A stretch of 62,156 nt of DNA, the filler included, from an uncultured bacterium (GTDB lineage Bacteria; DAOPZR01): assembly GCA_964637655.1 (NCBI GenBank). It is 4 parts of 4 records of this genome, joined end to end, with 100 filler letters (N's around TTAATTAATTAA, not from the genome) between each part and the next. Parts side by side here need not be neighbours in the genome. Positions count along the whole stretch, not along the records: positions 47,100 to 62,156 come from CAZWUZ010000059.1; 3 more parts are not named here. The stretch is one strand, 5' to 3'. A model generated the notes under the pieces. It did no database searches, was not told the origin of the DNA, and saw only the letters and a list, made by a program, of their open reading frames with translations. Below, one piece after another: positions 18,892-62,156 of the stretch. The first letter of the stretch is position 1, and the number at the start of each line of letters is the position of its first letter. A program made the translations under genes and the position numbers.

Positions 18892-20343
18892 ATGGCGGTG
18901 CAGAGCGCGCTGCCGCCGCGCAACCTCGAAGCGGAGCAGGCGCTGCTCGGCGCCATGCTCAAGTCGGAGCGCGCGGTCGCGGTGGCCATCGAGAACGTGC
19001 GCCAGACCGAGTGCTTCTACGACGACCGTCATCGCGTCCTCTACGACACGCTGCGCGAGATGTTCGCGCACAAGCGTTCCATCGACCTGACCACGGTGGC
19101 GGACGCGCTGCGCCAGCGGCGGCAGCTCGACGCCGTCGGCGGCACCCTCTACCTCTCGACGCTGCTCGAAAGCGTCCCCTCGGCGCTCAACGCCGACGAG
19201 TACGCGCGCATCGTGCGCGAAAAGCACCTGCTGCGCAAGCTCATCGGGGTCGGCCAGGAACTGACCGCCGGCGCCTACCGCGACACCGAAGAGGCGCAGG
19301 CGCTGATGAACACGGCGCAGAAGAACATCTGCGACCTCGCCTCGCAGGAGGACTCGACCCGCCTGTTCAGCGCCCGCGACCTCGTCCACGACGTGGTCGA
19401 GGAAATGGAACTGGTCTACAAGCACAAGGGGAGCCGTACGGGCGTGCGCACCGGCTTCGCCTGGCTCGACCACCACACGCGCGGCTTCCGCGGCGGCGAA
19501 CTGATCATCCTCGCGGCGCGCCCGTCGATGGGCAAGACGGCGCTGGCGCTCAACATCGCCACGCGCATCGCGCTCAACCGCGGCGAAAACGGCGAGAAAC
19601 TGCGCGACGACGACAAGCGCCTCCCGGTGCTTGTCTTCTCGCTGGAGATGTCGGCGGCGTCGCTGCTCACCCGCGTCATCTGCAGCGAGGCGCGGGTCGA
19701 CTGGGGCCGCCTCAACCGCGGGGTCGCCGACCCCAACGCCTTCGTGCGCATCACCGACGTCGCCTCCTGGCTGATGGAGAGCGACCTGCACATCAACGAC
19801 GCGTCGCTGATGACCCCGCTGGAGATCTCCGCGCAGGCGCGGCGGCTGGCGACGGACAAGGGGCAGCTCGGGCTGATTGTCATCGACTACCTGCAGCTGA
19901 TGCAGGCGGATGCCGCGGGCGGGCGGCGCGGAGCGCAGGAGAACCGCCAGCAGGAGATTTCGACCATCTCGCGCCAGCTCAAGGCACTGGCCCGCGACCT
20001 CAACGTCCCCGTGCTCGTCCTCTCGCAGCTCAGCCGGCAGGTGGAGCGGCGCGACGAGAAGCGCCCGCAGCTCTCCGACCTGCGCGAGTCGGGCGCCATC
20101 GAGCAGGACGCCGACCTGGTGCTCATGCTCTACCGCGAGGAGTACTACCTGCGCCAGCAGAACAAGATGGTGCCGCCCGATGTCGAGGGAACGGCGGAAC
20201 TGGCCATCGCCAAGCAGCGCAGCGGGCGTGCCGGCATCAGCGGCACGCTCACCTTCCACGGCCAGTACACGCGTTTCGAGACGCGCGAGATTCCGCAGGA
20301 GGAGCACCCCGAGGCGGAGTTCGTCACGGAGGAGCAGGGATGA
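18892..20343 (+). CDS. dnaB: Replicative DNA helicase
   Basis: PPRNLEAEQALLG, AARPSMGKT, FSLEMS, IDYLQL and DLRESGAIEQDAD. No intein. Confidence 0.96.
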   Translation: MAVQSALPPRNLEAEQALLGAMLKSERAVAVAIENVRQTECFYDDRHRVLYDTLREMFAHKRSIDLTTVADALRQRRQLDAVGGTLYLSTLLESVPSALNADEYARIVREKHLLRKLIGVGQELTAGAYRDTEEAQALMNTAQKNICDLASQEDSTRLFSARDLVHDVVEEMELVYKHKGSRTGVRTGFAWLDHHTRGFRGGELIILAARPSMGKTALALNIATRIALNRGENGEKLRDDDKRLPVLVFSLEMSAASLLTRVICSEARVDWGRLNRGVADPNAFVRITDVASWLMESDLHINDASLMTPLEISAQARRLATDKGQLGLIVIDYLQLMQADAAGGRRGAQENRQQEISTISRQLKALARDLNVPVLVLSQLSRQVERRDEKRPQLSDLRESGAIEQDADLVLMLYREEYYLRQQNKMVPPDVEGTAELAIAKQRSGRAGISGTLTFHGQYTRFETREIPQEEHPEAEFVTEEQG

Positions 20344-21110
20344 ATCCCGCGCTGCTGCCGGCGCCGGTGCGCGGGTTTATCGAAGCGACGGGCGACTTCG
20401 CGCTGCTCACGCGCGACACCGCGCGCAGCGCGCTGGTCCGTCCCTTCCGCCACGGCGAGGTGGTGCGGCAGATGTACCTCGCCGGGGTGAAATCGATGCC
20501 CATCGCGCTGGTGACCGCGCTGTTCACCGGCATGGTGCTCGCCCTGCAGACCGCCTACCAGCTCAAGAAGTTCGGGGCGGAGATTTACGTCGGCGGCATC
20601 GTCGGCCTGTCGATGGCGCGCGAACTGGGCCCGGTGCTCACCGGGCTGATGGTCGCGGGCCGCGTCGGGGCGGGGATGGCGGCGAATCTCGGCACCATGG
20701 CGGTCACCGAGCAGCTCGACGCGCTGCGCACCATGGGGACCGACCCGGTGAAATACCTCGTGCTGCCGCGCACCCTGGCGCTGGCGCTGATGCTCCCCGT
20801 ACTCACCATCTATGCCGACCTGGTCGGCTGTCTCAGCGGCTATTTCGTCAGCACGGTCTCGCTCGGCATCAACGGCGACATGTACATCAACACCGCCACC
20901 GACATCGTCCGGGTGAGCGACGTGCTCAACGGCCTCATCAAGTCAGCGGTCTTCGGCGCGCTCATCGCGCTGGCCGGGTGCCATGCAGGACTCACCTGCC
21001 GCGGCGGGGCGGAAGGGGTGGGGCTGGCGACGACTAAGGCCGTCGTGCTCGCCTGCATGCTTATCCTCGCGGCCAACTACTTCCTTACCGCGCTGATGGC
21101 GAACCTGTGA
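20340..21110 (+). CDS. mlaE: MlaE-family ABC permease
   Basis: RELGPVLTGLMVAGRVGA, EQLDAL and GAEGVGLATT. Confidence 0.9.
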   Translation: MNPALLPAPVRGFIEATGDFALLTRDTARSALVRPFRHGEVVRQMYLAGVKSMPIALVTALFTGMVLALQTAYQLKKFGAEIYVGGIVGLSMARELGPVLTGLMVAGRVGAGMAANLGTMAVTEQLDALRTMGTDPVKYLVLPRTLALALMLPVLTIYADLVGCLSGYFVSTVSLGINGDMYINTATDIVRVSDVLNGLIKSAVFGALIALAGCHAGLTCRGGAEGVGLATTKAVVLACMLILAANYFLTALMANL

Positions 21111-46999: not shown

Positions 47000-47099
47000 N
47001 NNNNNNNNNNNNNNNNNNNNNNNNNNNNNNNNNNNNNNNNNNNTTAATTAATTAANNNNNNNNNNNNNNNNNNNNNNNNNNNNNNNNNNNNNNNNNNNN
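47000..47099. other. Artificial contig linker
   Basis: N run containing TTAATTAATTAA. Confidence 0.95.
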
Positions 47100-48918: not shown

Positions 48919-49944
48919 ATGGGTGTAACCGATCTTATCGAAGCCTCACGCCTGCTGCTGACCTGCGCACAACGCGGCTACCTGACCCCGTACAAGGTCG
49001 TGAACCTGCTGCGCAATGCCTGGGCCATGCTGTGCCGCCAGCCGGAATTGAGCACCCTGCCGTCTGCCGTCATTCTGGAGCCGAACAATTTCTGCCAGCT
49101 CGACTGCGTCGGTTGCGCCGTGCCGCAACCGCAAGCCGACCCGATTGCGGACAAGGGCTGCCTCGACCCGCAGCTGGCCGAAACCATCCTTGACGATTGC
49201 AGCCGCGCCCTGCTCATCACCGTCATCTACCTCGGCGGCGAGCCGTTTCTCAACCGTGACCTCCTGCGCATTGTCGCCGCCGCGCATCAGCGCCGCGTCT
49301 TCACGGTCGTCAGCACCAACGGGTCCTTTCCCACCCCCGACGACTGGGGCGCGCAGGTTACCGCCAGCGGCCTTGACCTCATCATTTTCTCCTTCTCCGG
49401 GCTTGATCAGGAAACCCACGGACAATACCATCGCCAGGGCAGCCTCGAGCAGACGCTCGCCAATATCCGCAAGCTGCTGGCCGTACCGCGCCATCCCCGC
49501 ATCCTGCTCCGCTACATCCGCAACCGGAACAACCGGCACGAAACCAACGCGGCCGTGCGGGCGTTCGTCCGACAACTCGGCAGGGTGTCGCTGGAAATCC
49601 GCGAGGGCTTCAAGGAGATCGATTTCACCAATCTGTTCGCCAATGAGTCAGCCATCCGCACACAGCTGGCTGACCAGCCGGTGACCAACCATTGCCACAA
49701 CCTCTGGTTCCTCCCGGTCGTGCGCTGGACAGGTGACGTCATCCCCTGCTGTTTCTTCTTCTACCGCGTGGCAACGCTCGGTTCGGTGCGGGAGCAGCCG
49801 CTCTCCGCCATCTGGCGTTCGCCGCGCTACACCGGGTTCCGCCGCCTGCTGCTCACCGACCGCCGCAAACTGCTCGGCTGCCTGCTGTGCGACGGCAAGA
49901 TGGGCTTCCAGTACAACTGCTTCAAGCGCGAACTGCCGAAGTAG
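48919..49944 (+). CDS. Radical SAM protein with SPASM/twitch domain
   Basis: CQLDCVGC, GGEPFL, STNG, and C-terminal CHNLW..GDVIPCC..CLLC. Confidence 0.88.
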   Translation: MGVTDLIEASRLLLTCAQRGYLTPYKVVNLLRNAWAMLCRQPELSTLPSAVILEPNNFCQLDCVGCAVPQPQADPIADKGCLDPQLAETILDDCSRALLITVIYLGGEPFLNRDLLRIVAAAHQRRVFTVVSTNGSFPTPDDWGAQVTASGLDLIIFSFSGLDQETHGQYHRQGSLEQTLANIRKLLAVPRHPRILLRYIRNRNNRHETNAAVRAFVRQLGRVSLEIREGFKEIDFTNLFANESAIRTQLADQPVTNHCHNLWFLPVVRWTGDVIPCCFFFYRVATLGSVREQPLSAIWRSPRYTGFRRLLLTDRRKLLGCLLCDGKMGFQYNCFKRELPK

Positions 49945-49951
49945 CCGCCGG

Positions 49952-50015
49952 CTGCAACGATTAGCGCTCAACGGGCGCTATGTTTCCAAGCGCCTGTTGC
50001 AGCGCGAAGTTGGCC
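49952..50015 (-). repeat. attC-like site of cassette 5 (64 bp, divergent loop)
   Basis: Minus strand: GGCCAAC-TTCGC-GCTGCAAC-AGGCGCTTGGAAACATAGCGCCC-GTTGAGC-GCTAATC-GTTGCAG. Confidence 0.85.
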
Positions 50016-50145
50016 GCCATATTTTCTGATTTCATCGGTTCTGTACCCCCACGCCATGCCAGTAACCGTATCCGACCATCACCCCCGATTGCCATCAACA
50101 CAAGCATGCCTTCGGAGTGCACGCCACTATGGCGGCGACTATTCT

Positions 50146-51294
50146 TCATTTCAGCACCTCGAAAATATAATCCCCTTCATTGCTGTGAATTCGAATTGTG
50201 TTATCTACCAGTGTCAAACGATAATTTGGCGCGGCGGAAAATCTCACAAATTCACTATTGGTCGTTTTGTATTCTCCAATAATACATCCTTGGTTATCAA
50301 GCACTATTATCGATTTGATTAACTTGATGCCATTCCTGGTAATCAATTCACCAACGAAAAAACTCGCATTTTCTGCGATTTGTAAATTATCAATCCTTCC
50401 CGGAACATCGAATTGATGGATAACGGAAAATCCACTACTCTCGTAAATATTAACCTGATACTTAATGGGCTCAATGCTGATAAGCTTTTCGATAGCAAAA
50501 TATCCGAAATCACTTGTGCTGCCAATAATGCATATATCAGAGAAATTAGTGTCTCTAAATTGCTTGATAAGTACACCATTTTCATCGTAAATCGATACTT
50601 CATCACTATTTTCATTTCGTAAACTAGTTTCAGTACAAATAATTTTCCCATCATGAAATACTTGTACTCTATGAGCTGTCGATGGTTTTGACCAAACAAT
50701 TTCTCCGGTCCCGCTGATTTTCATCAGATTGGAATTTGTCAATATTATTAATTTCCCATCCTGCAGTAACACAATTTGCGAAATCCCTCTCGTCTGCGAT
50801 TTATCTACAGTCGCCATCAACTTTCCTTGAAAATCATACTGATATAATCCTGCATTTATAACCGGGTCAATCTGAAATTCCCATTCGCCATTTAATCGTC
50901 CAACAACCCAGATGAAATTCTTATCTTTAGGAATGAATATCAATTCAGATTGTACTGGAAATGCCGCAATTGTTTCTCCATCTTTAGTAAGTATAGTCAG
51001 ATGATGTCTGCCGGTTCCTGTGCTTACCGCCGCATAAATATTCGGATTTTCCGTTGGTATCACGCGCCCGTATTGTGAAATGTCCACCATGGTACCCGAT
51101 ATGGAACCTGATTGCATTCCGATAAATCTAATTTTGTCGCCTTGAACAGTTATTCCTGCGGGAAGATTGCTTTGTTCTACCGTTCTAACCGGGGTATCAG
51201 TTTGTTCTCCTTGTTCTTGGCACCCTGAATAAACGACGAGCGATAGTATTAGCAATAAGGTAATATATGTTTTAGGGAGAATCGCTCGCATCAC
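50146..51294 (-). CDS. Cassette 5: putative lipoprotein, probable beta-propeller
   Basis: Signal ending VYSGC, repeated YDxxG beta-strand units, AT-rich codons. Confidence 0.75.
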   Translation of the reverse strand: MMRAILPKTYITLLLILSLVVYSGCQEQGEQTDTPVRTVEQSNLPAGITVQGDKIRFIGMQSGSISGTMVDISQYGRVIPTENPNIYAAVSTGTGRHHLTILTKDGETIAAFPVQSELIFIPKDKNFIWVVGRLNGEWEFQIDPVINAGLYQYDFQGKLMATVDKSQTRGISQIVLLQDGKLIILTNSNLMKISGTGEIVWSKPSTAHRVQVFHDGKIICTETSLRNENSDEVSIYDENGVLIKQFRDTNFSDICIIGSTSDFGYFAIEKLISIEPIKYQVNIYESSGFSVIHQFDVPGRIDNLQIAENASFFVGELITRNGIKLIKSIIVLDNQGCIIGEYKTTNSEFVRFSAAPNYRLTLVDNTIRIHSNEGDYIFEVLK

Positions 51295-51337
51295 ATTTTC
51301 GCTCCATATTGTCGTTAAGTATTAATCATCGCCGTAA

Positions 51338-51402
51338 GGCCAACGATGAGCGCTCTGCGTTGAGCCGCGCCAGCGGCGAAGCGCAGGAGCGCAATGTTAT
51401 CC
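51338..51402 (-). repeat. attC-like site of cassette 4 (65 bp)
   Basis: R'' GGATAAC, L'' GCTCCTGC, L' GCAGAGC and R' GTTGGCC. Confidence 0.9.
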
Positions 51403-51494
51403 GACGCATCCTTTGATTATATCACTGCCTGACCTCTAGCACATGTAATAGCTAATATACTATATCCAGTCCATGATAGCCATACAGGCTTGTG

Positions 51495-52958
51495 TCATGG
51501 ACCATCGAGTGTCGGGTTAGCATATGTATGGCGTCTGCGAGTTTCTGCCGGGGACAACTGCCGACGGCTAGTAGGAATCCTGGTAATAGTTGAGGCTCGT
51601 CGCATATATTCAGCAATCCAGTCGTTAATAGAAACGGTGTTGCGCTGTCGCATCACATCAAGAAACTCACGATAGGCAAAATCATTAGCTGGTTGTCGTT
51701 CAATAATGCCACCGTTTGATACATACACACAAAACGGCCCATCTTCGCCATAGCGTATGCTCCAGTCAATATTTCCCTGCTCATCATAGGCACCGATGCA
51801 TTTGAGCAGATAAAGTCTCCCGCGGCGCGAAGAAACAAGTGTTTTCCATAGTTGTTCTTCATTATTTCCCTGTGTGACGTATTCGCAAATTCGGGTATAT
51901 GCTCCGTCACGAGTGAGATAATACACCGTTTCTCTCGTTTCCTGCCATTCCCATCCGCCATCATCCGTAACGACGATGAATTCAGGTACCGGCGTCCCGA
52001 TCACATTCTGCAGACGGCATGATATGACTTTCGTGATCCGAGCCTGCTCACTATAGGAACAGGCATCGTAATACAGTGAAAGCTTGGCCAGCAAATCAAT
52101 GAATGCTGGAGGGATACCAAACTGTGATAAATCTGTATCGGGTTGGCGTATCGCGAGTTGTCGTAGAATATATGCTACGTTGATGTAATCATGCTTTTTC
52201 CAGGCATGCTGTAATGCGTTTGTAAGTTGGACCGGGCTGCTGTCCAGGAAACTTAGTGATGTAAGCGGGACCCATCCTGTAAGATAACGTTCGTGATTGA
52301 TGAGCGCGAGATTTTCTGCTGTAGCAACGGCAATAACCGTGACTGAATCACCGCGGGTCAATAGACCAGCCGGTGCTCCTGCAGCATAATAGTTTGAACG
52401 AACATTCAGTGTATTGTCGATACACAAGGCTAGATGGTTATCCCGTGCTGCAGGCTGTTGAAACCATCCTCTCGCTTCAAGTTCCATCGCCGGTTTAAGC
52501 ATCTGCCAGCAGCTCGGAGTTTCGTTTCGCATCTCGATCTTGAATTCATCGTTGAAACGGCGACAGTCAGCGGCAAATTGCTGACGGACAAATTCAGATT
52601 CACCGAGAATATCAAGCGCAATTACCAGTTCACGCCCGACTTCCAACTTATCAAGCGCTAGCCTCGGGACATCTTTGTTGATATTCTGTCCCGCTAAGGT
52701 CATTAAGGTGTCACTGGCAATGATTGTTTTGATTCGGGAAACCAACGCCTCGGTAACTGGCTCGTGCAATAGCGGCAGACGCGGAGAAAAATGAGCTGTG
52801 TTCAAAATGTCGGGATAATCTCGATTTGCCTGTGGTGGCAGTGGCGACGGATCATCAGGGGGTTCCGTACAATTCCATCCCATCAGCGCCATGGTTAGAT
52901 AGAATGCGAATATCCAGAACATCCCCCATCGCCCGGGACAATTCATCGGGAAAGTCAA
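51495..52958 (-). CDS. Cassette 4: exported protein with a bacterial SH3b-like domain (start uncertain)
   Basis: Hydrophobic N-terminus ending in Cys plus a Pro linker. LNVRS..GLLTRGDSVTVI..TGWVP. Confidence 0.7.
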   Translation of the reverse strand: MTFPMNCPGRWGMFWIFAFYLTMALMGWNCTEPPDDPSPLPPQANRDYPDILNTAHFSPRLPLLHEPVTEALVSRIKTIIASDTLMTLAGQNINKDVPRLALDKLEVGRELVIALDILGESEFVRQQFAADCRRFNDEFKIEMRNETPSCWQMLKPAMELEARGWFQQPAARDNHLALCIDNTLNVRSNYYAAGAPAGLLTRGDSVTVIAVATAENLALINHERYLTGWVPLTSLSFLDSSPVQLTNALQHAWKKHDYINVAYILRQLAIRQPDTDLSQFGIPPAFIDLLAKLSLYYDACSYSEQARITKVISCRLQNVIGTPVPEFIVVTDDGGWEWQETRETVYYLTRDGAYTRICEYVTQGNNEEQLWKTLVSSRRGRLYLLKCIGAYDEQGNIDWSIRYGEDGPFCVYVSNGGIIERQPANDFAYREFLDVMRQRNTVSINDWIAEYMRRASTITRIPTSRRQLSPAETRRRHTYANPTLDGP

Positions 52959-53039
52959 ACGATATTTCCCACATACTGAATAGCTGCCAATCGCATCACA
53001 TCACCGCCCAATACTCCGGCTTCATTATCGTCATCGCGA

Positions 53040-53104
53040 GGATAACGATTAGCGCTCTGCGTTGAGCCGCGCCAGCGGCGAAGCGCAGAAGCGCGAAGTT
53101 CGCA
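53040..53104 (-). repeat. attC-like site of cassette 3 (65 bp)
   Basis: R'' TGCGAAC, L'' GCTTCTGC, L' GCAGAGC and R' GTTATCC. Confidence 0.9.
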
Positions 53105-53109
53105 GTTCA

Positions 53110-53439
53110 CTATTTGGTGTCCATATCAGCTACATCTGCGGCCCAGAATTCAATTCCACCTGGTCCTGCCTCGAAATCACCAACGCGAACTCGCAAGCCA
53201 TCTAATCCCCGCTCGGAAACATCTTTAATGAAAAGACCCGGACATGCAGGAAAACCCTTATGCACCGCAATATCCTGCGGGCGCAGGAATCGAAGACGAC
53301 GCACAACTGACCCATTTTTTAGGACCAAATCAATCCAAGAATCATTCGGCTCATCCGGTGATCGATAAAAGTGATACTCAACAATCTGATATTCCCAAGG
53401 CTTATCGATAATAGTATGGTCCGGATCTTCTTTATTCAT
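53110..53439 (-). CDS. Cassette 3: hypothetical protein (109 aa)
   Basis: Fills the cassette. AGGTG SD next to the core site, stop 5 nt before R''. Confidence 0.8.
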   Translation of the reverse strand: MNKEDPDHTIIDKPWEYQIVEYHFYRSPDEPNDSWIDLVLKNGSVVRRLRFLRPQDIAVHKGFPACPGLFIKDVSERGLDGLRVRVGDFEAGPGGIEFWAADVADMDTK

Positions 53440-53447
53440 ATTTCACC

Positions 53448-53512
53448 TGCGAACGATTAGCGTTCTGCGTTGAGCCGCGCCAGCGGCGAAGCGCAGCAAC
53501 GCGAAGTTAGCT
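53448..53512 (-). repeat. attC-like site of cassette 2 (65 bp)
   Basis: R'' AGCTAAC, L'' GTTGCTGC, L' GCAGAAC and R' GTTCGCA. Confidence 0.9.
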
Positions 53513-53518
53513 GGGATT

Positions 53519-53797
53519 TTAGCATATTTCTGTTGCTGTGAACCCAAGAGAGTGTACCTCGTCATCTGTAGAAATCCGAAAATCTACAATTTCGGATTTG
53601 CCGCAGGCGGGGCACTTTTTCCCTTTATAGGTTTGATCAGGTGATATTTTACGTGGGTCTGGAAATACCGATTCGTCTTCATCGCAGGTAATCAGAATTT
53701 TACCGCATGATGGGCAGGTCGAAAATATCAACGATTGACCTTGTGTGCAAATCGGGCAATCCTTGCGCAAATACCATATCGGTTTGTTAAATTCCAT
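53519..53797 (-). CDS. Cassette 2: small Cys-rich zinc-ribbon-like protein (92 aa)
   Basis: CPIC, CPSC, CDED and CPAC. Fills the cassette. Confidence 0.78.
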   Translation of the reverse strand: MEFNKPIWYLRKDCPICTQGQSLIFSTCPSCGKILITCDEDESVFPDPRKISPDQTYKGKKCPACGKSEIVDFRISTDDEVHSLGFTATEIC

Positions 53798-53812
53798 ATC
53801 ATCTCTCTCTAC

Positions 53813-53878
53813 AGCTAACGATTAGCGTTCTGCGTTGAAGCCGCGCCAGCGGCGAAGCACAGCAACGCGAAGTTGAGC
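53813..53878 (-). repeat. attC-like site of cassette 1 (66 bp)
   Basis: R'' GCTCAAC, L'' GTTGCTGT, L' GCAGAAC and R' GTTAGCT. Confidence 0.9.
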
Positions 53879-53925
53879 ATTTAGATTCTGGAATCATTGC
53901 TTCGCACCTCTCAACATAATATCAG

Positions 53926-54264
53926 TCACCACCACCATGTGCCAATCATTAATCCCAGCCAATATGCTAATACGGACACATACAGCAAACCAAAAAGTAA
54001 CGCTGGCACTCTAGTCCTGATGTTTTCTCCTGGTGTTATCGCTTTTGCCACACGCTGCCGATAGTGGCGAACCAGTGCCCAATAACCTGCCACAATCAAC
54101 CATAATGAAGTAACAATCGGAACGATGTTGCGCTGCAATCGTTCGAAATTGATGGTGATAATATTCGATTCATCTCCGCTAACATCTACCGTTGCCAGTA
54201 CGATAGAAGGCGACAACAGCATTATGCCAGTCATGGCTACAATGATCAGTGCGAGAAATCGCAT
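53926..54264 (-). CDS. Cassette 1: small membrane protein (signal peptide plus 2 TM)
   Basis: Three hydrophobic segments, in the first cassette. Confidence 0.7.
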   Translation of the reverse strand: MRFLALIIVAMTGIMLLSPSIVLATVDVSGDESNIITINFERLQRNIVPIVTSLWLIVAGYWALVRHYRQRVAKAITPGENIRTRVPALLFGLLYVSVLAYWLGLMIGTWWW

Positions 54265-54308
54265 GTCATCTCTGATGTAATATTCATTCGTGCCTCAATC
54301 ATTATCGT

Positions 54309-54342
54309 ATGCCCAACATTCATATTGTACACATGTGTATAA
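54309..54342 (-). other. attI-like crossover site (G/TTGGGC) with adjacent palindrome
   Basis: GTTGGGCAT matches cassette 1 R'' ATGCTCAAC at 8/9 positions, with no attC hairpin upstream. Palindrome TACACATGTGTA at 54328-54339. Confidence 0.7.
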
Positions 54343-54347
54343 CACAG

Positions 54348-54376
54348 ATTGTACTGCTACTTTCGGGGAATGTCAA
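54348..54376 (-). promoter_or_regulatory. Pc-like sigma70 promoter reading into the cassette array
   Basis: TTGACA (54376-54371)-N17-TACAAT (54353-54348). Confidence 0.8.
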
Positions 54377-54500
54377 TAGGGCAGGCAAAAACAGTGCAAA
54401 ACAGAGTATTCATGTAATTTACTGCCGGCAGAGATATTGCAACAACATCATAGAATTTCGACCGCCGGGCAAAATCGGAACGGCAGCAGTATGCATGCCC

Positions 54501-54538
54501 CCGGGGGTTGTTACACACAAGTGTGTAACAACTGCCGG
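54501..54538 (-). terminator. Hairpin immediately after hydG (terminator or operator)
   Basis: 18-bp arms matching at 16/18, with perfect core GTTGTTACACAC-AA-GTGTGTAACAAC. Confidence 0.55.
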
Positions 54539-54542
54539 AGCA

Positions 54543-55952
54543 TCAGTAGGGACAGTCGCGCACTGTGCCGGTGCGGATGGCCGCGAGGCGGGAGGCAACT
54601 TCATCCCGCTGCGCGTCAGGGAGTTGCGCCAGTTCGCGTGCGATAAGCATTTCGCCCGCGGCGAGCACGTCCGCCGGCGCATAGTCGATGAGGTATTCCT
54701 GGAAGGTCAGCAGCGCGTTGGGGGTGCAGAAGCGCTTGATGAAGCCGGGAATCGCCTGCTCCATGAAGTGCTCGCCCGTGCGGCCGCGGCGGTAGCAGGA
54801 GGTGCAGAAACTCGGCAGGTAGCCGTCGCGGATCAGTTCCCCGATAACCGCGTCGAGCGTGCGCGCATCACCGAGCGCAAACTGCTCGCGCTCCAGTCGC
54901 TGTGCCCCGTCGGTATCGGTATAGCCGCCCAGTTCGATATTCGAGCCCGCATCGATCTGCGACACCCCGACCGCGAGCGCGGCGCGGCGCACCGCGGGGT
55001 TTTCGCGTGCGGTGCAGATGAGGCCGGTGTAAGGAACGGCGAGGCGCAGCACCGCGACAAGATGCAGGAAATCATCGTCGCTGACCAGCCACTGCGGGTC
55101 GTGCGCCACCCCGTGGGCCGGCTGCAGGCGCGGGAAACTGATGGTGTGCGGCCCCACGCCGCCGCGCTCCTGCAGGTGGCAGGCATGGCTGACCAGGCCA
55201 AGCACCTCGAAGCGCCAGTCATACAACCCGAAGAGCGCGCCCAGACCGACATCGTCGCACCCCGCGCGCATGGCGCGCAGCAGCCCGTCGAGCCGCCAGG
55301 CGTAGTCCGCCTTCGGCCCCGACGGATGCACCTGCGCGTAGGTCGCATGATGGTAGGTTTCCTGAAAGATCTGGTAGGTACCGATGCCCGCGGCCTTGAC
55401 GGTGCGGTAACCCGCGTCGTCGAGCGGCGCGGCATTGATATTGATGCGGCGGATTTCCCCGCGCCCCTCTTTCACCGCGTAGGCACTGCGCACCGCGTCA
55501 GCAATGAAGTCCGCGCCGTAGTCGGGATGCTCGCCGAAGACGAGGATGAGCCGCTTATGTCCCGCCCGCTCCAGCGCCACCACCTGCGCGCGCAGTGCCT
55601 GATCGTCGAGCGTACGGCGCACCGCGCTGGTGTTCGAGCGGCGGAAGCCGCAGTAAGCGCAGTCGTTGACGCATTCGTTGCCGACGTAGAGCGGGGCAAA
55701 GAGAACGATGCGGTTGCCGTAGATGCGGTCCTTGAGTTCCTGCGCCGCGGCGCGGATGGCTGCGCGCGGTTCCGGGGCGGACGCGGTGACCAGGCGCGCG
55801 GTTTGCGCCGGGGTCAGCGGCTGTTTGGCCAGCGACTGCGCGCAGAGGTCGCGCACCTCGGCGGCATCCGCCGGCGGCTGTGCCAGCAGCGCCTGCAGGC
55901 GGGCCTCGTCGATGAAATCGGTGAAATCGTCGCTCAGTCGGCGCTCTGCCAC
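54543..55952 (-). CDS. hydG: [FeFe]-hydrogenase maturase HydG
   Basis: YGNRIVLFAPLY, CVNDCAYC, FQETYH, GPHTISFPR and second cluster SFCTSCYR..FCTPNA. Confidence 0.95.
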   Translation of the reverse strand: MAERRLSDDFTDFIDEARLQALLAQPPADAAEVRDLCAQSLAKQPLTPAQTARLVTASAPEPRAAIRAAAQELKDRIYGNRIVLFAPLYVGNECVNDCAYCGFRRSNTSAVRRTLDDQALRAQVVALERAGHKRLILVFGEHPDYGADFIADAVRSAYAVKEGRGEIRRININAAPLDDAGYRTVKAAGIGTYQIFQETYHHATYAQVHPSGPKADYAWRLDGLLRAMRAGCDDVGLGALFGLYDWRFEVLGLVSHACHLQERGGVGPHTISFPRLQPAHGVAHDPQWLVSDDDFLHLVAVLRLAVPYTGLICTARENPAVRRAALAVGVSQIDAGSNIELGGYTDTDGAQRLEREQFALGDARTLDAVIGELIRDGYLPSFCTSCYRRGRTGEHFMEQAIPGFIKRFCTPNALLTFQEYLIDYAPADVLAAGEMLIARELAQLPDAQRDEVASRLAAIRTGTVRDCPY

Positions 55953-57010
55953 GTGATCCCCCCCTGCAGTTGCCGCCGGCGGCGATAGCGCGCTGACGAA
56001 CCCGCCCCCGTGCCGACGGTGCGCCCGAGTGACGCGAGCATTTCGCGCAGGCGACAGTCAGCACCGGTGGCATCGTCATGCGGTGCCGGCTTCCCCGGGT
56101 AGACCAGGTACTGCGCGCGATACTGTGCCGGCGTGACATTCGGCATCACTACGTTGGCGCCCCACTGCAGTCCCGCGGCATAGCCCGCCTCCGGATCGAG
56201 CGTCGCCAGCGCGGTAGTACTCGGGATATTGGCATCGGGAAGGAGCAGGCGGGTCAGCGCAATGGCAGCCAGCGCCATGGCGGCGGTGTGCGGGACCTGC
56301 TCCGCATCCGTCGGCACAGGCCGCTGCCCGAGCGGCGTGTCCGGATGCGGAATGAACGGCCCGATACCGACCATGTCGAGATCGAGCGCGGCAAAGAGCT
56401 GGATGTCGGCCGCCAGGTCGTCGAAGGTCTGTCCCGGCAGCCCGACCATGACCCCGCTCCCCACCTCGTAGCCGAGGTCGCGCAGCAACGCAAGCTGCGC
56501 GATGCGGTCGCTCGGCTTGCCGCCAAGCGGCGGATGGTAGCGGTCGTACAGTTCGCGGTTTCCCGTTTCGAAACGGAGCAGGTAGCGGTCCGCACCCTGC
56601 GCGCGCCACTCGATGAGGTCGTCGCGGTCGCGCTCACCCAGCGACAGGGTGACCGCCAGCCCCGTCTCCCGGCGCACGGCGCGAATGGCTTCGCTGACCA
56701 GCGCGCGCGTCAGGCCCGGGTCTTCCCCGCCCTGCATAACGACGGTGCCATAGCCGCACGCGGCCGCGCGCTGCGCCGCGGCAACGGTCTCGTCCAGCGT
56801 CAGGCGATAGCGGGACAGGGCGCGATTGTTCGCGCGCAACCCGCAATAGTAACAGTCGCGGGCGCAGGTGCTGGAGATCTCGATCAGCCCGCGCAGGTGA
56901 ACGGCATCGCCCACGGTGGCGGCGCGCACGCGATCCGCCTCCTCGCGCAGCGCCGCGCGGGACGCGGGATCGGCGGCACGCAGCCGTGCCGCCAGTTCGT
57001 CGTAGTTCAT
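55934..57010 (-). CDS. hydE: [FeFe]-hydrogenase maturase HydE
   Basis: RGLIEIS..CARDCYYCGLR, YLLRFET, GIGPFIPHPDTP, ANVVMPN and YLVYPGK. Confidence 0.93.
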   Translation of the reverse strand: MNYDELAARLRAADPASRAALREEADRVRAATVGDAVHLRGLIEISSTCARDCYYCGLRANNRALSRYRLTLDETVAAAQRAAACGYGTVVMQGGEDPGLTRALVSEAIRAVRRETGLAVTLSLGERDRDDLIEWRAQGADRYLLRFETGNRELYDRYHPPLGGKPSDRIAQLALLRDLGYEVGSGVMVGLPGQTFDDLAADIQLFAALDLDMVGIGPFIPHPDTPLGQRPVPTDAEQVPHTAAMALAAIALTRLLLPDANIPSTTALATLDPEAGYAAGLQWGANVVMPNVTPAQYRAQYLVYPGKPAPHDDATGADCRLREMLASLGRTVGTGAGSSARYRRRRQLQGGITWQSAD

Positions 57011-58173
57011 GCCGCCGGCGGCTGCTCCGGCAGGGTGACCGTGAACGTCGTGCCCACGTCGGGCTCGCTCGCCACGGTGACGCTGCCGCCATAGAGTTCC
57101 GCCAGTTTCTTGACGATGGAGAGTCCCAACCCGCTGCCAAGGATGCTGGCGGTTTTGCGGTTGCGGATGCGCACGAATTCGCCGAAGAGGCGCCCGACTT
57201 CCTGCACGTTCATGCCGATGCCGGTATCCGCGACCCGCAGCATGACGCCGGCGGCTTCGCGGCGCAGGGTGACGGTGACGCTGCCCTGGTCGCGGTTGTA
57301 CTTGACCGCGTTGGTCAGCAGGTTGTTGCAGATAATGGAGAGTTCGAGCCGGTCGGCGGTGAGCAGCACGCGCTCCGGCCCGTCGACCGTGACGGTGATG
57401 CTGCGCGCCTGCGCCGCGGGCTGCACGGTTTCCACCGCCTCGCGCACCACGGCGGCGAGATCCTGTTCCTGCAGTTCGCGCGCGCGCAGCCCCGACTCGA
57501 TCTTCGTCAGCTGCAGCAGGTCGCCGATGAGCTTGCGCATCTGCTCGGCGCGGACGATGGAGCGGTTGACCGCGTCGTCATAGGCGGAAAGCTCGCTCCC
57601 CGCCACGCGGTCGCGGATGATGCGCAGGTAGCCGTCAATGGCGTCGAGCGGCGCCTTGAGTTCATGCCCGAGCACGGAGAGAAACTTGAACCGCACCTGC
57701 TTTTTTTCCGCCGCCAGCCGGCGCGCATGGCGGGCGAGGACGACGGAGCGCGACGCCTTGCGCACCACCGCGCGCAGTTCGTCCGGGGTGAAGGGCTTGG
57801 CGAGGAAATCGTAGGCGCCGCGCTTGATGGCGGCGACCGCGGTCTCGAGCGAGGCGTAGGCGGTGATCATCACCGTCTGCATGCCGCTCTCCCCCGCCGG
57901 CAATTGTTCGAGCACGTCCAGCCCGGTCATGCCCGGCAGCTTGTGGTCGAGCAGCAGCAGGTCGGGGAGCCCGCGGCGGAGGATGGCGAGCGCCTCCTCC
58001 CCGCTCGCCGCCTGCTCGACGGCAAAGGTGATGCTCAGATCGAGGTCCGTCTCGGCAACGGTGAAGCGCTCAAGCGCGCGGGTGATCCCCTGGCGCATCC
58101 CGGGTTCGTCGTCGACCACCAGCACGCGCAGCCGCGTGCCGCTGTCCGCGGGTACCGCGTCGGGCCTATCCAT
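57007..58173 (-). CDS. Hybrid receiver-histidine kinase
   Basis: VVDDE, LLDHKLP, KPF, HELKAPL, NAVKYN, DTGIG and GSGLGL. Confidence 0.92.
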   Translation of the reverse strand: MDRPDAVPADSGTRLRVLVVDDEPGMRQGITRALERFTVAETDLDLSITFAVEQAASGEEALAILRRGLPDLLLLDHKLPGMTGLDVLEQLPAGESGMQTVMITAYASLETAVAAIKRGAYDFLAKPFTPDELRAVVRKASRSVVLARHARRLAAEKKQVRFKFLSVLGHELKAPLDAIDGYLRIIRDRVAGSELSAYDDAVNRSIVRAEQMRKLIGDLLQLTKIESGLRARELQEQDLAAVVREAVETVQPAAQARSITVTVDGPERVLLTADRLELSIICNNLLTNAVKYNRDQGSVTVTLRREAAGVMLRVADTGIGMNVQEVGRLFGEFVRIRNRKTASILGSGLGLSIVKKLAELYGGSVTVASEPDVGTTFTVTLPEQPPAA

Positions 58174-58523
58174 GGAGGAGGTACTCCATCTGCGCCAGGC
58201 AGCCGGCCTGCGGCCTGCTGCTCCCGGCACGTTCGTTATGTTTTTGGGGGCGCAGCCGGGCCTGCGGCCCGGCAGTGCCCGACACCGTCAGGTAGTCAGC
58301 CATGGAGGAGGTGCTCCATCTGCGCCAGGCAGCCGGCCTGCGGCCTGCTGCTCCCGGCACGTTCGTTANNNNNNNNNNNNNNNNNNNNNNNNNNNNNNNN
58401 NNNNNNNNNNNNNNNNNNNNNNNNNNNNNNNNNNNNNNNNNNNNNNNNNNNNNNNNNNNNNNNNNNNNGTGCCCGACACCGTCAGGTAGTCAGCCATGGA
58501 GGAGGTGCTCCATCTGCGCCAGG
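58170..58523. repeat. 130-bp tandem repeat: 30-bp gene-end copy plus 100-bp GC hairpin unit (copy number unresolved)
   Basis: CCATGGAGGAGGT(A/G)CTCCATCTGCGCCAGG at 58170, 58300 and 58494. N gap at 58369-58468. Confidence 0.85.
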
Positions 58524-58900
58524 AGCTGCTCGAAGCGCACCGGTTTGGCGAACATGGCGTCCGCCTTGACCCACGAGCGCTCCTCGGCAGTGGCGGCGTC
58601 AATCGAGATGCCGGTGTCGGCGCTGACCGCGGTGACGAGGATGACGGGGATTTTCACGTCCAGCTTTTTGATGTGGTAGCAGAGGGTGAACCCCGAGTCC
58701 CAGTTTTCCATCATCACGTCAACGATGGCGAGGTTGACCGGTTCCGTGCGCAGCACCTCCTCGGCGGCAGCGGCGCTGTTCGCTTCGAGCACGCGGAACC
58801 CCGCGCCGCGCAGCCGCAGCACCAGCTGCAGGCGGTAATCCTCGTCGTCATCGACCACCAGCACGGTCGCATCGTGGGCTTTCGCCTTTGTCTCAGTCAT
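58490..58900 (-). CDS. Single-domain response regulator
   Basis: LVVDDD, IVDVMME, LVTAV and KPV. Confidence 0.9.
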   Translation of the reverse strand: MTETKAKAHDATVLVVDDDEDYRLQLVLRLRGAGFRVLEANSAAAAEEVLRTEPVNLAIVDVMMENWDSGFTLCYHIKKLDVKIPVILVTAVSADTGISIDAATAEERSWVKADAMFAKPVRFEQLLAQMEHLLHG

Positions 58901-60929
58901 TGCGTTCCTCCGCGGCGGCCGGCGGCCGCCGTCTGTCCGTATCGCTCAGCGCGGCGCCGCTGCGCGGCAGCACCACGGTAAAGGTCGTCCCCGTCGGCCC
59001 GGCCGCCGGGTCGTTGTTGGACACCACGCGGATATCGCCGCGGTGCATCTTGACGATGCCGTAGCTGACCGCCAGCCCCAGCCCCGTTCCCTTCCCCGCC
59101 GGCTTGGTGGTGAAGAACGGTTCGAAGATGCGCGTCAGGTCGCCCGCGGGGATACCGGTACCCGTATCGCGCACAGCCAGGAAGATGCGCTCGCCGCGCA
59201 CCTCGCTGCGCACGGTCAGGGACCCGCCCGACGGCATGGCGGCATAGGCATTGACGACGAGGTTGGTGAGCACCTGCAGCAGGCGGTCGCCGTCAGCGGC
59301 GAGCACCGGGTCGGCCAGCGTCAGCTCGGTCTGCACGGTGATGCCCGGCGGCGGCTGATGGCAGTCGAGCACCTCGCGCACCAGCGCGTGCAGGTCGGTC
59401 GGCACGCTCTCCACTGTGTTGTTCTGCCGGGCGAAGTGCAGCAGCCCGGCAACGATCTTCTTGCAGCGCTCCGCCTGCCGCGCGATCAGGTCGAGGTCGG
59501 CGAACTGTTCCGAGTCCGGCTGGCTGGCATCGCGCAGCAGGTGCGCATACATGAGGACCACCCCGAGCGGGTTGTTGACCTCGTGGGCGATGCCGGCGGC
59601 CAGCTGGCCCAGCCCGGCGAGTTTCTCCGACTGCACCAGCGCCTCCTGCGTGGTCGCCAGTTCCGTGACCGTGGCGCGCAGCTGCTCGATCGTATGCGGC
59701 AGGCACATCTCGTTTTCCGCCAGTCCGAGGCGGATGGCGGCGGCATGCTCACGGCAGGTTTCGTAGCCGCAGGCCCCGCAATTGAGTTCATCCTCCGGCC
59801 CGCGCTGCCCGAGCCGGCGCAGCACCGCGGTCAACTCAGCGTCGTCGGGAACGGGGAGACGCTGGTCAGCGGCCGCATAGGTGCGCGTCAGGTCGAGGGC
59901 CGCGTCAGCCGCCAGTTCGCGCTGCCAGGCGACGCGGTCGAACGCTTTCTGCTGCCGGCGCACGTAGTCGCCGATGCGGGAGCGGCGGCGGAAGAGCGGC
60001 TCGGTGCAGGTCATGCCGGCGCCGGCGAGACAGCCCTGGCAGCAGAGCACCTCGAGCAGGCGGGCGGAGAGGTCGCCGCTCTCGAATTCGCGCACCGCCT
60101 CGACGAACTCGGCGCGCCCGGCGGCGGTGACGATCTCGTTGGTGGTGAGATCCTCATTCAGCGCCGCGGCCTGCAGCAGTCCGCGGCTGACGGCAAAGAG
60201 TCCGCCCAATCCGCCATGCGGCGGGTCGAACTCCGCGGGCGGGGCGGCGGCCGGGTCGAGACCGCGCTCCTGCCACAATTCGCGCAGTTCGCGGAAAGTA
60301 AGCGCGGCATCAACATCACGGTGCCCCGCGGCGTCGGTGACCTCCCCCTTCTTGGCGATGCACGGCCCGATGAAGACCAGCGGCATGGCGCCGTGCCGGC
60401 GGCGCACCGCGCGCGCCATCGCCACCATCGGCGAGACGATGGGCGCGAGCACCGGCACCAGTTCCGGGTGGTAGCGTTCGACGTAGCCGACGATACCGGG
60501 ACAGGAGGTGGCGATATAGCGCCGGTCCGGTTCCTCCGCCAGCAGCCGCGCATAGGCGGCGGCGACGAGGTCGGCCCCGTAGGCGACGGCAAACACGCGG
60601 GCGAAGCCGAGCGCATGCAACGCCCCGATGACCTGCCGCGCGTCGAGTTCCCCGAACTCGGCGGCAAAACTCGGGGCGAGAAGCGCGCCGACCGGCGCGG
60701 GGGCGGCAAGCAGCGTTCGCACCGCGGCGGTGCCGTCGAGCACCACCTTCGCCCCCTGGCTGCAGACGCGCACGCAGTTGCCGCAGGCGATGCAGCGCTC
60801 GGGCATGACCTCCGCCTGCCCGTCGACGATGCGGATGGCCTTGGCCGGGCATTCGCGCACGCAGGTAAAGCAGGTGCGACAGCGTTCGCGCAGCGTGCGG
60901 ATGAGCGGCTCGGCGGGCGTCTGGCGCAT
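58893..60929 (-). CDS. Sensory [FeFe]-hydrogenase-like domain fused to a histidine kinase (group C type)
   Basis: 2[4Fe-4S], variant H-cluster motifs ATSCPG, GPCIAKKGE and EVLCCQGC, an FeS domain LNCGACGYETC, HisKA AHEVNNPL and HATPase. Confidence 0.88.
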   Translation of the reverse strand: MRQTPAEPLIRTLRERCRTCFTCVRECPAKAIRIVDGQAEVMPERCIACGNCVRVCSQGAKVVLDGTAAVRTLLAAPAPVGALLAPSFAAEFGELDARQVIGALHALGFARVFAVAYGADLVAAAYARLLAEEPDRRYIATSCPGIVGYVERYHPELVPVLAPIVSPMVAMARAVRRRHGAMPLVFIGPCIAKKGEVTDAAGHRDVDAALTFRELRELWQERGLDPAAAPPAEFDPPHGGLGGLFAVSRGLLQAAALNEDLTTNEIVTAAGRAEFVEAVREFESGDLSARLLEVLCCQGCLAGAGMTCTEPLFRRRSRIGDYVRRQQKAFDRVAWQRELAADAALDLTRTYAAADQRLPVPDDAELTAVLRRLGQRGPEDELNCGACGYETCREHAAAIRLGLAENEMCLPHTIEQLRATVTELATTQEALVQSEKLAGLGQLAAGIAHEVNNPLGVVLMYAHLLRDASQPDSEQFADLDLIARQAERCKKIVAGLLHFARQNNTVESVPTDLHALVREVLDCHQPPPGITVQTELTLADPVLAADGDRLLQVLTNLVVNAYAAMPSGGSLTVRSEVRGERIFLAVRDTGTGIPAGDLTRIFEPFFTTKPAGKGTGLGLAVSYGIVKMHRGDIRVVSNNDPAAGPTGTTFTVVLPRSGAALSDTDRRRPPAAAEERND

Positions 60930-60938
60930 GACCGGCCC

Positions 60939-62156
60939 TCAGTGCACCGTATCGCGCTTGTGGTAGCGCGTATGCAGCAGGCGGTGCGCCTGTTCCCCGC
61001 CCGGTTCGCCGAGGTACTGCGTGTAGAGGCGGCGGATCTCGGGGTTGTTGTGCGACACGCGCAACGCCTCCTTCTGGTCGAGTTCGTAGAGTGCCTGCAG
61101 CCGCGCGCGCACCGCGTCGGGCTTGACCCCGATCGGCTGCCCGCCGCCGTTGATGCAGCCGCCCGGGCAGGTCATCACCTCGATGAAGTGCAGGTCCTGC
61201 CGCCCGGCGCGCAGCTGTTCGAGCAGGGCGCGGGCATTGCCCAGGCCGCTGACCACGGCAATGCCGAGTTCCTTCCCGTCGACCGTCACCTTCGTCTCCT
61301 TGATGCCGTCGAAGCCGCGGATGGCCTTGAGCGCGGGCACCTTGAGTTCCTTACCGGTGAGCAGGAAATGCGCGGTGCGCAGCGCCGCCTCCATGACCCC
61401 GCCGCTGCCGCCGAACAGCTTGCCCGCGGTGCTGCGCGTGCCGAACGGACTGTCGGCGAATTCCGGCTCGAGCGAGGCGAAGTCGATGCCGTTCATGCGG
61501 ATCATGCGCACCAGCTCGCGCACGGTGAGCACCGCGTCGATATCCGGTTCATCCTGCTGCGTCATCTCCTCGCGCCCCGCCTCGAACTTCTTGGCGGTGC
61601 AGGGCATGACGGCAACGCTGAAGATCTCCTGCGGCGGACGGTTGATCTCCTGCGCGAAGAACGACTTGATGACCGCACCGAGCATCTGCTGCGGGCTCTT
61701 GCAGGACGAAAGGTGCGGGATGAACTCGGGGTAGAACTGCTCGAGGAACTTGACCCAGCCGGGCGAACAGGAGGTGAACATCGGCAGTTTCCCGCCCTGT
61801 CGGATGCGGTTGACCAGCTCGGTCGCCTCCTCCATGATGGTCAGGTCGGCGGAGAACGAGGTGTCGAAGACGTAGTTAAACCCGAGGCGGCGCAGCGCGG
61901 CGTTGAGCAGCCCGCTGACGTCGCTGCCGGCGGGCAGCCCGAACTCCTCGGCGATGGTCACCGAAACGCTCGGCGCATGCTGCACGACCACCGTCTTCTC
62001 CGGGTGGCGCAGGGCGTCGACGACCTCCTTGATGCTGCTCTGCTCGCGCAGCGCCCCGGTCGGGCAGGCCATGATGCACTGCCCGCAGTTGACGCACGAC
62101 GACAGGTTGAGTCCCTGGTCGAACGTGGTGGCGACGTAGGCGTTGCAGCCGCGCCC
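60939..62156 (-). CDS. hydA: [FeFe]-hydrogenase group A catalytic subunit (5' part outside window)
   Basis: FTSCSPGW, MPCTAKKFE, EVMTCPGGCINGGG, preceding ferredoxin motif CVNCGQC..CPTGAL and C-terminal LLHT. Confidence 0.93.
   Translation of the reverse strand, partial: GRGCNAYVATTFDQGLNLSSCVNCGQCIMACPTGALREQSSIKEVVDALRHPEKTVVVQHAPSVSVTIAEEFGLPAGSDVSGLLNAALRRLGFNYVFDTSFSADLTIMEEATELVNRIRQGGKLPMFTSCSPGWVKFLEQFYPEFIPHLSSCKSPQQMLGAVIKSFFAQEINRPPQEIFSVAVMPCTAKKFEAGREEMTQQDEPDIDAVLTVRELVRMIRMNGIDFASLEPEFADSPFGTRSTAGKLFGGSGGVMEAALRTAHFLLTGKELKVPALKAIRGFDGIKETKVTVDGKELGIAVVSGLGNARALLEQLRAGRQDLHFIEVMTCPGGCINGGGQPIGVKPDAVRARLQALYELDQKEALRVSHNNPEIRRLYTQYLGEPGGEQAHRLLHTRYHKRDTVH

Follow-up and report, generated by a model that had tools for sequence, protein, structure and literature searches.

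An integron-type cassette array with an attI and promoter-like head, but no adjacent integrase gene, next to hydG in an uncultured bacterium

Organization of the locus

The DNA analyzed here (hereafter the window, a stretch of 62,156 nt from assembly GCA_964637655.1 of an uncultured bacterium, along whose full length all positions are counted) contains an island of five cassettes that share one head and end in imperfect palindromes (Table 1). The island lies between two convergent host genes, a radical SAM/SPASM gene on the left, whose stop codon (49942–49944) is 7 nt from the outermost palindrome, and hydG on the right (TIGR03955, 451 bits vs. a cut-off of 312; stop codon 54543–54545), which is followed by hydE. 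GC content is 0.36–0.52 inside the island vs. 0.60–0.74 in the flanks. A preliminary description had presented the locus as an AT-rich, integron-like array flanked by these two genes, and the GC values and stop codons agree with that outline.

The same description held that no integrase was adjacent, a statement that needs a narrower frame. The window is not one contig: two contigs meet at a run of N's (47000–47099) whose center is a TTAATTAATTAA linker with stops in six frames, and the absence of an adjacent recombinase therefore applies to the island contig (47100–62156, 15,057 nt, the same length as recorded for the contig of the cassette 5 protein), within which it stands, and which reaches 2.9 kb past the distal end of the array and 7.6 kb past the head.

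Table 1. Features of the cassette island and of the adjoining hydrogenase locus
Feature	Position	Strand	Details
attC site A (distal, last)	49952..50015	-	64 nt; R'' GGCCAAC, R' GTTGCAG; R1 60.3 bits
attC site B	51338..51402	-	65 nt; R'' GGATAAC, R' GTTGGCC; R1 76.9 bits
attC site C	53040..53104	-	65 nt; R'' TGCGAAC, R' GTTATCC; R1 86 bits
attC site D	53448..53512	-	65 nt; R'' AGCTAAC, R' GTTCGCA; R1 84.4 bits
attC site E	53813..53878	-	66 nt; R'' GCTCAAC, R' GTTAGCT; R1 78.7 bits
Cassette 5	49958..51343	-	382-aa open reading frame (ORF) 51294..50146; start TTGGCC vs. own R'' GGCCAAC
Cassette 4	51344..53045	-	487-aa ORF 52958..51495
Cassette 3	53046..53453	-	109-aa ORF 53439..53110; start TTCGCA vs. 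own R'' TGCGAAC
Cassette 2	53454..53818	-	92-aa ORF 53797..53519 with CxxC pairs; start TTAGCT vs. AGCTAAC
Cassette 1 (next to attI)	53819..54316	-	112-aa hydrophobic ORF 54264..53926
attI core	54311..54342	-	crossover box GTTGGGC 54317..54311, then conserved block of ~25 nt
Pc-like promoter facing the cassettes	54376..54348	-	TTGACA, 17 nt, TACAAT; 11/12 consensus positions
Two 18-nt inverted-repeat arms	54501..54538	.	89% complementary; at most 10 nt from hydG stop
Whole head	54317..54538	-	homolog of the intergenic stretch lying between attI and intI in related integrons
Response-regulator/histidine-kinase hybrid	57007..58230		hydrogenase locus
Hydrogenase-like domain fused to HisKA and HATPase (sensory-hydrogenase-like kinase)	58893..60929		hydrogenase locus
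hydA-like gene	60939..62072		hydrogenase locus

The palindromes have attC architecture

The five palindromes lie on the minus strand, begin with NNNNAAC and end with GTTNNNN, and their positions, boxes and lengths (64, 65, 65, 65, and 66 nt) are as first described. When a gapped site pattern was run against 185,579 species genomes, it matched 19 stretches, 11 of them in a single metagenome-assembled genome (MAG), G001, and in metagenomes it matched 56 stretches, for the most part short contigs that carry one to five sites. G001 is related to the organism of the window, as ~10 kb of the window's first contig are syntenic with G001 contig C1 at 68–78% nucleotide identity, and hydG is 79% identical between the two. 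We aligned the five window sites with 11 sites of G001 and built a covariance model (R1) from these 16 sequences, which was run with filters off.

Sites B to E are near-identical, while the inner stem of site A differs yet still pairs. Each of the five is predicted to form an imperfectly paired hairpin (for site A, z = -2.8 when read on the minus strand and z = -4.1 on the plus strand), and across the alignment 89.3% of cells are paired, vs. 22.6–42.3% with a slid partner, with both-sided changes in 4 of 20 pairs. The AAC and GTT triplets are invariant in 16/16 sites and paired in 7 of 10 minimum-energy folds (five sites, two strands). The further marks of attC sites are present as well, namely an unpaired spacer (TTC vs. 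TAATC), one bulged base (alignment column 16), and a variable terminal loop, here of two types. Every attC test that was run on the five sites thus came out positive. One box stands alone: GTTGCAG, at the outer end of site A, has no cassette starting with it among the loci compared (window, G001, and metagenome).

Running such a covariance model over the sequence had been proposed at the outset, and across the 62-kb window only the five sites stand out (60.3–86 bits, vs. 10.9–25.4 bits for the same sites on the opposite strand). Since these five match R1 by construction, the informative result is that the window holds no other copy, the best unrelated match on either strand of the 62,156 nt reaching 14 bits (E 0.055). 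Simple patterns gave a similar picture, with all exact matches to a 14-nt left-arm pattern (5/5) and to a 19-nt core pattern (4/4) inside the island; with up to two mismatches the left-arm pattern had 8 matches, vs. a shuffle mean of 1.9. In G001, R1 has 52 matches (E up to 0.01) in arrays across 16 contigs. Among 60 relatives of G001 the family was limited to G001 itself, where 47 matches had E ≤ 1e-6, and to a single match in G059.

Cassette ends are complementary to their own distal boxes

The first bases of all four internal cassettes are the exact complement of the cassette's own R'' (4/4 nt each), and cassette 1, at the attI junction, is complementary at 3 of 4 nt with one mismatch. To evaluate this pattern more broadly, a hidden Markov model (HMM) of the 16-site alignment was used to collect sites, which gave 190 matches, 161 of them with both boxes inside the locus, and after de-duplication 78 distinct sites forming 45 consecutive pairs at most 4 kb apart (the window contributed 4, G001 16, and metagenomes 25). 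The 4 nt after the upstream GTT are the complement of the 4 nt before the downstream AAC in 34 of these 45 pairs, whereas over 2,000 shuffles of the partners perfect pairs averaged 2.9 and never exceeded 10. Complementarity within one site was complete (4/4) in just 9 of the 78 sites. The cassette-end complementarity first noted in the window is therefore borne out there and recurs elsewhere, and the footprint that circular intermediates leave in attC arrays is present.

GC-rich hairpins 3' of ORFs are also where terminators and repetitive extragenic palindromic (REP) elements sit, and one might thus take the palindromes for REP-like or terminator-like host repeats with no integron involved and with coincidental complementarity. 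We consider this scarcely credible. The excess over shuffled partners speaks against it, as do the absence of any copy outside the island in 62 kb, the occurrence of the G001 copies only in arrays tied to IntI and to heads, a terminator scan of 53800–54700 that returned 0 sites, and the fact that homology to the second genome breaks at the AAC and GTT triplets (see below). Dispersed palindromes of the REP or bacterial interspersed mosaic element type were likewise rejected, as the G001 copies are clustered; the preliminary description had named genome-wide scatter as REP elements as what would refute it, and no such scatter is seen with R1 in the 62 kb.

The head is homologous to attI-to-intI regions

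On the hydG side, the array starts at a head of ~220 nt that aligns over its full length with the regions between first cassette and intI in G001 and ends where intI would start. Seven such heads occur in G001, of two types: type A on C280 (intact intI), C115 (internally deleted intI), C28, and C65, and type B at C1:14.6k, on C134, and at C1:26.5k (intI pseudogene). The window head is of type B. A block RYYYAAC-(A/T)TTC(A/T)T(A/G)TT.TAC is present in 9/9 aligned heads of the two otherwise divergent types, and the attI core of the window matches the attI beside the intI pseudogene on C1. As cassette 1 homology starts at G/TT, and the head is homologous to intI-adjacent regions, the attI-like nature proposed for it stands, and this attI has been used for cassette insertion. 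A promoter-like site is also found where a promoter had been suggested; its hexamers and 17-nt spacing are kept in 4/4 type-B heads (in an alignment read by eye), so that a role as a Pc-like promoter is predicted.

The inverted-repeat arms at the far end of the head are also found in G001, at C1:14757–14783 and C134:921–949. This end palindrome is best kept in the window and at G001 C1:14.6k (two of three heads without intI), better than in heads with intI, and its outer pairs covary between the window (54501–54538) and C1:14.6k (L046 14749–14794); the copy on C134 is imperfect, with no outer extension. It may be an operator or a terminator.

The integrase is absent here, and present and decaying in G001

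A tblastn search of the whole 62-kb window with the IntI of G001 returned nothing better than E 2.0, and the window retains no remnant of intI; the hydG stop at 54543 comes directly after the head. A complete integron, which would have intI adjoining attI, was rejected on these grounds. [quoted passage not shown]

By contrast, G001 encodes on C280 one integron integrase above the NCBIfam cut-off (378 bits vs. 265), and 6 of 40 relatives of G001 have an IntI above the cut-off. The G001 protein aligns with residues 7–318 of Vibrio cholerae IntI4 (VchIntIA; PDB 2a3v, E 7.7e-78), including the stretch between the two catalytic regions, and differs from it in carrying ~115 extra residues at its N-terminus, for which Pfam gave no match. 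The window encodes no protein of this kind. The N-terminal extension of the G001 integrase (encoded at L020, G001:C280 273–1574) is kept in the C1 pseudogene (59% identity over residues 1–74) and in the C65 remnant (65% identity over residues 1–43).

The other G001 heads display stages of intI decay. The C115 copy is internally deleted, with residues 1–42 and 268–431 kept, and the C1 copy is a frameshifted pseudogene; C65 retains the first 43 codons, C1:14.6k and C134 retain faint 5' remnants, and on C28 the break lies right after the intI ATG. The independent remnants at G001:C115 5417–6032 (residues 43–267 deleted) and G001:C65 6600–6728 (truncated) break alike at codon 42/43, which may thus be a deletion hot spot of intI. 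The arrays on C115 and C1 run divergently from intI (in R1 orientation), hence the minus strand of the window is the cassette-sense strand, and the ORFs agree.

Cassettes are shared with G001 across different neighborhoods

Cassettes 4 and 1 have counterparts in G001. Cassette 4 (51338–53100) is 97% identical at the nucleotide level to G001:C115:44–1809, vs. 68–78% for core DNA and 79% for hydG of the two genomes. Identities are 0.94–1.0 per 100 nt inside the cassette vs. 0.28 on one side and 0.36–0.58 on the other, with the homology ending at the AAC (51342) and the GTT (53100). The neighboring boxes differ, and so do the neighbors of the cassette. Cassette 1 is 85% identical to G001:C46:15308–15816, and its homology begins at (G)TTGGGC, which follows attI in the window and attC in G001. 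In the G001 copy the R'' (GCCCAAC) is a perfect complement, and the single mismatch of the window copy is therefore a later substitution there. Parts of these two cassettes are also found on metagenome contigs (L064, 96.8%, and L070, 84.7%).

These comparisons show that the cassettes pass between genomes as units and that integron-integrase chemistry, with a G/TT crossover, put them in place. The five cassette coordinates originally proposed are consistent with G/TT crossovers, and the claim that these are true integron cassettes is supported by the attC architecture, the complementarity, and the breaks at cassette ends relative to G001.

Evidence from public sequencing runs

Part of the stretch is contained in 13 public sequencing runs from eight studies, and four runs from one wastewater study hold 0.42–0.52 of sampled words. 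The runs were examined in contig form. In run X3, a 936-nt contig that matches 49120–50055 with 0 differences extends from the radical SAM gene across site A into cassette 5, and thereby confirms the distal junction independently. At the other end, X1 covers 54278–54545 and X2 covers 54535–54780, and the listed pieces of X1 to X3 have no differences from the window.

Depth is about ten-fold higher over sites C and D, and loose ends with various sequences start at the R-box edges 53100/53103, 53448/53453, and 53508/53510. Contigs of X1, X2, and X3 leave the window sequence at the R-box edges of these two sites, which indicates other cassettes on the same attC family. Run X5, from a digester study, has cassette 4 (17 differences over 660 nt and 11 over 504 nt), and its "skip" joints, which link attC-like or head-like pieces, fit other arrays of a G001-like organism.

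These data also bear on whether the locus could be a complete integron whose integrase is hidden by the assembly, either through a misjoin at a repeated head or because the intI contig was binned apart. Heads are indeed repeats (seven in G001), CALIN counts are inflated in draft assemblies according to PMC9024848, and no listed piece bridges the point where X1 stops (54545) and X2 begins (54535). Such a join would still need a head abutting hydG, however, and head homology ends no more than ~10 nt from the hydG stop with no intI remnant; moreover, four G001 heads without usable intI lie inside longer contigs (C1:14.6k, C134, C28, and C65). A hidden integrase is thus very improbable.

Probably the cassette side of a chromosomal integron

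Taken together, we read the island as the cassette side of a chromosomal integron, with attI, a Pc-like promoter, and five attC-ended cassettes, and with intI missing (probability about 0.88). The co-oriented cassettes appear promoterless, and transcription would proceed from the head promoter along the minus strand. The array would have been built by successive insertions at attI, with cassette 5 the oldest and cassette 1 the newest, and the entry of cassette 4, at 3% divergence from its counterpart in G001, would then have been followed by three more insertions. The array would still be serviceable given an IntI of the G001 type in the genome, and would be a frozen relic without one.

Several observations weigh against this reading or parts of it. 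Eleven of the 45 pairs are imperfect, with one, two, and three matching positions in five, three, and three pairs, respectively; in six of the 11 the two sites lie >1.2 kb from each other, and the HMM may have missed a site in between. The extrahelical base on the recombining strand of attC sites is usually a G. Here the bulged base on the putative recombining (bottom) strand is C, G, or A, depending on the site. No listed contig spans 54540 with at least 31 letters on each side, which leaves the head-to-hydG joint unbridged, and both this joint and the cassette order are as assembled. Finally, service in trans may apply, but we infer it purely from G001, a relative with 68–79% core identity; its one support is the presence in G001 of an intact IntI together with a related head and attC sites of the same family.

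The reverse case, in which a functional IntI is absent from the genome and the array amounts to vertically inherited cargo that keeps its promoter, would be a sub-case of the same explanation and leave the identity of the island unchanged. No IntI is encoded in the window, decay is common in the lineage given an intact intI at only one of seven G001 heads, and runs X1 to X3 have the locus without differences in the listed pieces, all of which would fit such a frozen relic. On the other side, cassette 4 is only 3% from its G001 copy and yet is fourth in the array, which implies the three later insertions if cassettes entered at attI, and the same attC family carries many other cassettes in the same metagenomes. 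We thus regard the relic as a serious but minority possibility.

How the integrase may have been lost from the locus

For the state without intI, we give roughly even odds to deletion on the spot, as staged in G001. A plausible though less favored origin is translocation, in which a circle made of head and array would have entered a secondary GTT site lying between the convergent host genes, and other routes together have a small share. Comparison with an empty site offers little guidance, as the convergent neighbor of hydG in G001 is a different gene (acetyl-CoA hydrolase/transferase family, 61-nt spacer), which makes G001 a weak comparator. The radical SAM neighbor has no orthologue in the 60 relatives of G001, where a 34% paralogue within G001 was all that matched, and none in the metagenome contigs searched.

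It is tempting to speculate further that the unit of attI, Pc head, and cassette array is itself movable in this lineage, a proposal that we hold to be unlikely. IntI would recombine the GTT abutting its own start codon with a distal attC, yielding a circle of head and array. Secondary GTT sites would then take up the circle, in this case within a small hairpin flanked by the convergent host genes, and the outcome would be several promoter-bearing satellite platforms with one integrase serving many. Four observations fit such translocation: a GTT lies at this intI-proximal position in seven of the eight distinct heads aligned (window and seven of G001), with the window head ending there; site A, the last attC, ends in the orphan box; the host flanks (49945–49957 and 54532–54542) together would form a 5-bp stem with GTT in the loop; and G001 has seven heads with one intact intI. 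The head end at GTT, the orphan box, and the flank stem are the product expected if a circle closed at site A had hit a secondary site. Against this, the head inverted repeat seems to run 6 nt past that GTT, and since the extension covaries with that at G001 C1:14.6k, these 6 nt may belong to the head. Three G001 heads without usable intI also keep a 5' remnant of the gene (clear on C65, faint at C1:14.6k and on C134), and the break on C28 is 5 nt from G/TT. The junction between head and host is placed no finer than 54530–54542.

Cargo of the cassettes

Searches of Pfam, NCBIfam, and PADLOC gave no above-threshold match for any of the six cassette ORFs, which include, besides those of Table 1, a 62-aa ORF (50149..49961) in cassette 5 that overlaps into attC site A. 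The 92-aa protein has weak zinc-ribbon matches, all under the Pfam cut-offs, and the 382-aa protein has a signal peptide and lipobox-like N-terminus with an all-beta prediction. The sole relative of the 487-aa protein in searches of 5.8 billion proteins and 1.84 billion representatives is the G001 copy (96% amino acid identity), which begins at residue 5 of the window ORF, and the 382-aa protein has no database match except itself. Single-sequence AlphaFold models of the cargo had mean pLDDT values of 42.0 and 35.3, too low to base a fold search on. The cargo is entirely ORFan, and two of its proteins have no relatives outside this system among billions of database proteins.

Genomic setting

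Broken down by element, GC content is 36–50% in cassette bodies, 59–66% in attC sites, and 60–74% in the host flanks, with the same contrast in G001 (G001:C1 8500–15000). The cassette pool appears to be either un-ameliorated to the host or sourced from low-GC donors.

The island borders an [FeFe]-hydrogenase locus (54543–62156) comprising hydG, hydE, and downstream genes. A gap of 99 N's at 58370–58468 lies within it, with copies of a ~120-nt direct repeat (repeat period) on both sides, and ORFs called across this gap or across 47000–47099 are artefacts. The first contig of the window has two long fused ORFs, at 7259–11158 and 19011–21110, one of 1,299 aa with carboxyl-transferase and biotin-carboxylase domains, and the other of 699 aa, with MlaE making up its C-terminal 212 residues. 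Neither Rfam nor a tRNA scan had a match in the window, and an atlas search with DNA polymerase I returned proteins of mixed phyla.

Relation to known systems and significance

The kind of element described here is already well known, with 2,961 CALINs in RefSeq complete genomes (PMC9024848). As in CALINs (Cury et al., 2016; PMC4889954), the island comprises no fewer than two attC sites with cassettes and no intI nearby, its cassettes lack a known function and any resistance genes, and such clusters may co-occur with complete integrons able to mobilize their cassettes. It differs in that attI and a Pc-like promoter are retained, whereas the CALINs split from integrons in that paper are cut off from Pc, and in that its attC sites are very homogeneous, whereas CALINs are reported with particularly low attC similarity. 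Unlike the typical CALIN described, it also comes from a lineage with many heads and few integrases.

The sedentary chromosomal integrons of Vibrio and Xanthomonas (PMC9024848; PMC4889954) are similar in being chromosomal, with highly similar lineage-specific attC sites, ORFan cassettes in one orientation, and a promoter in the attI region. The island differs from them in having five cassettes with no integrase at the locus and a cassette GC of 36–52%, far under the 60–74% of the flanks. By the definition of Cury et al. (PMC4889954), a sedentary chromosomal integron has >19 attC sites or occurs in all genomes of a species, and we rejected this class on size, with 5 sites here and the 52 of G001 spread over 16 contigs. 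A third comparison is with the cassette insertions at secondary genomic sites (attG and SALIN) of Loot et al. (bioRxiv 10.1101/2022.09.11.507474), who report insertions outside att sites, imprecise excisions, and excision "even outside" the insertion point. There too, IntI offers a route for attC-bearing DNA beyond the integron, and the last attC of the island ends in a partnerless box beside a host stop codon; those events differ in moving single cassettes without attI, whereas here a complete head with five cassettes would have had to move.

The locus is a clean natural example in which the attI junction, the G/TT breakpoints, the complementarity, and a cassette shared across neighborhoods are all readable. 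It indicates that some CALINs are platforms with an insertion site and a promoter rather than mere fragments, which has consequences for counting and interpreting the cassette reservoirs of uncultured bacteria in wastewater and digesters. Given an integrase acting in trans, such platforms could still take up and express cassettes.

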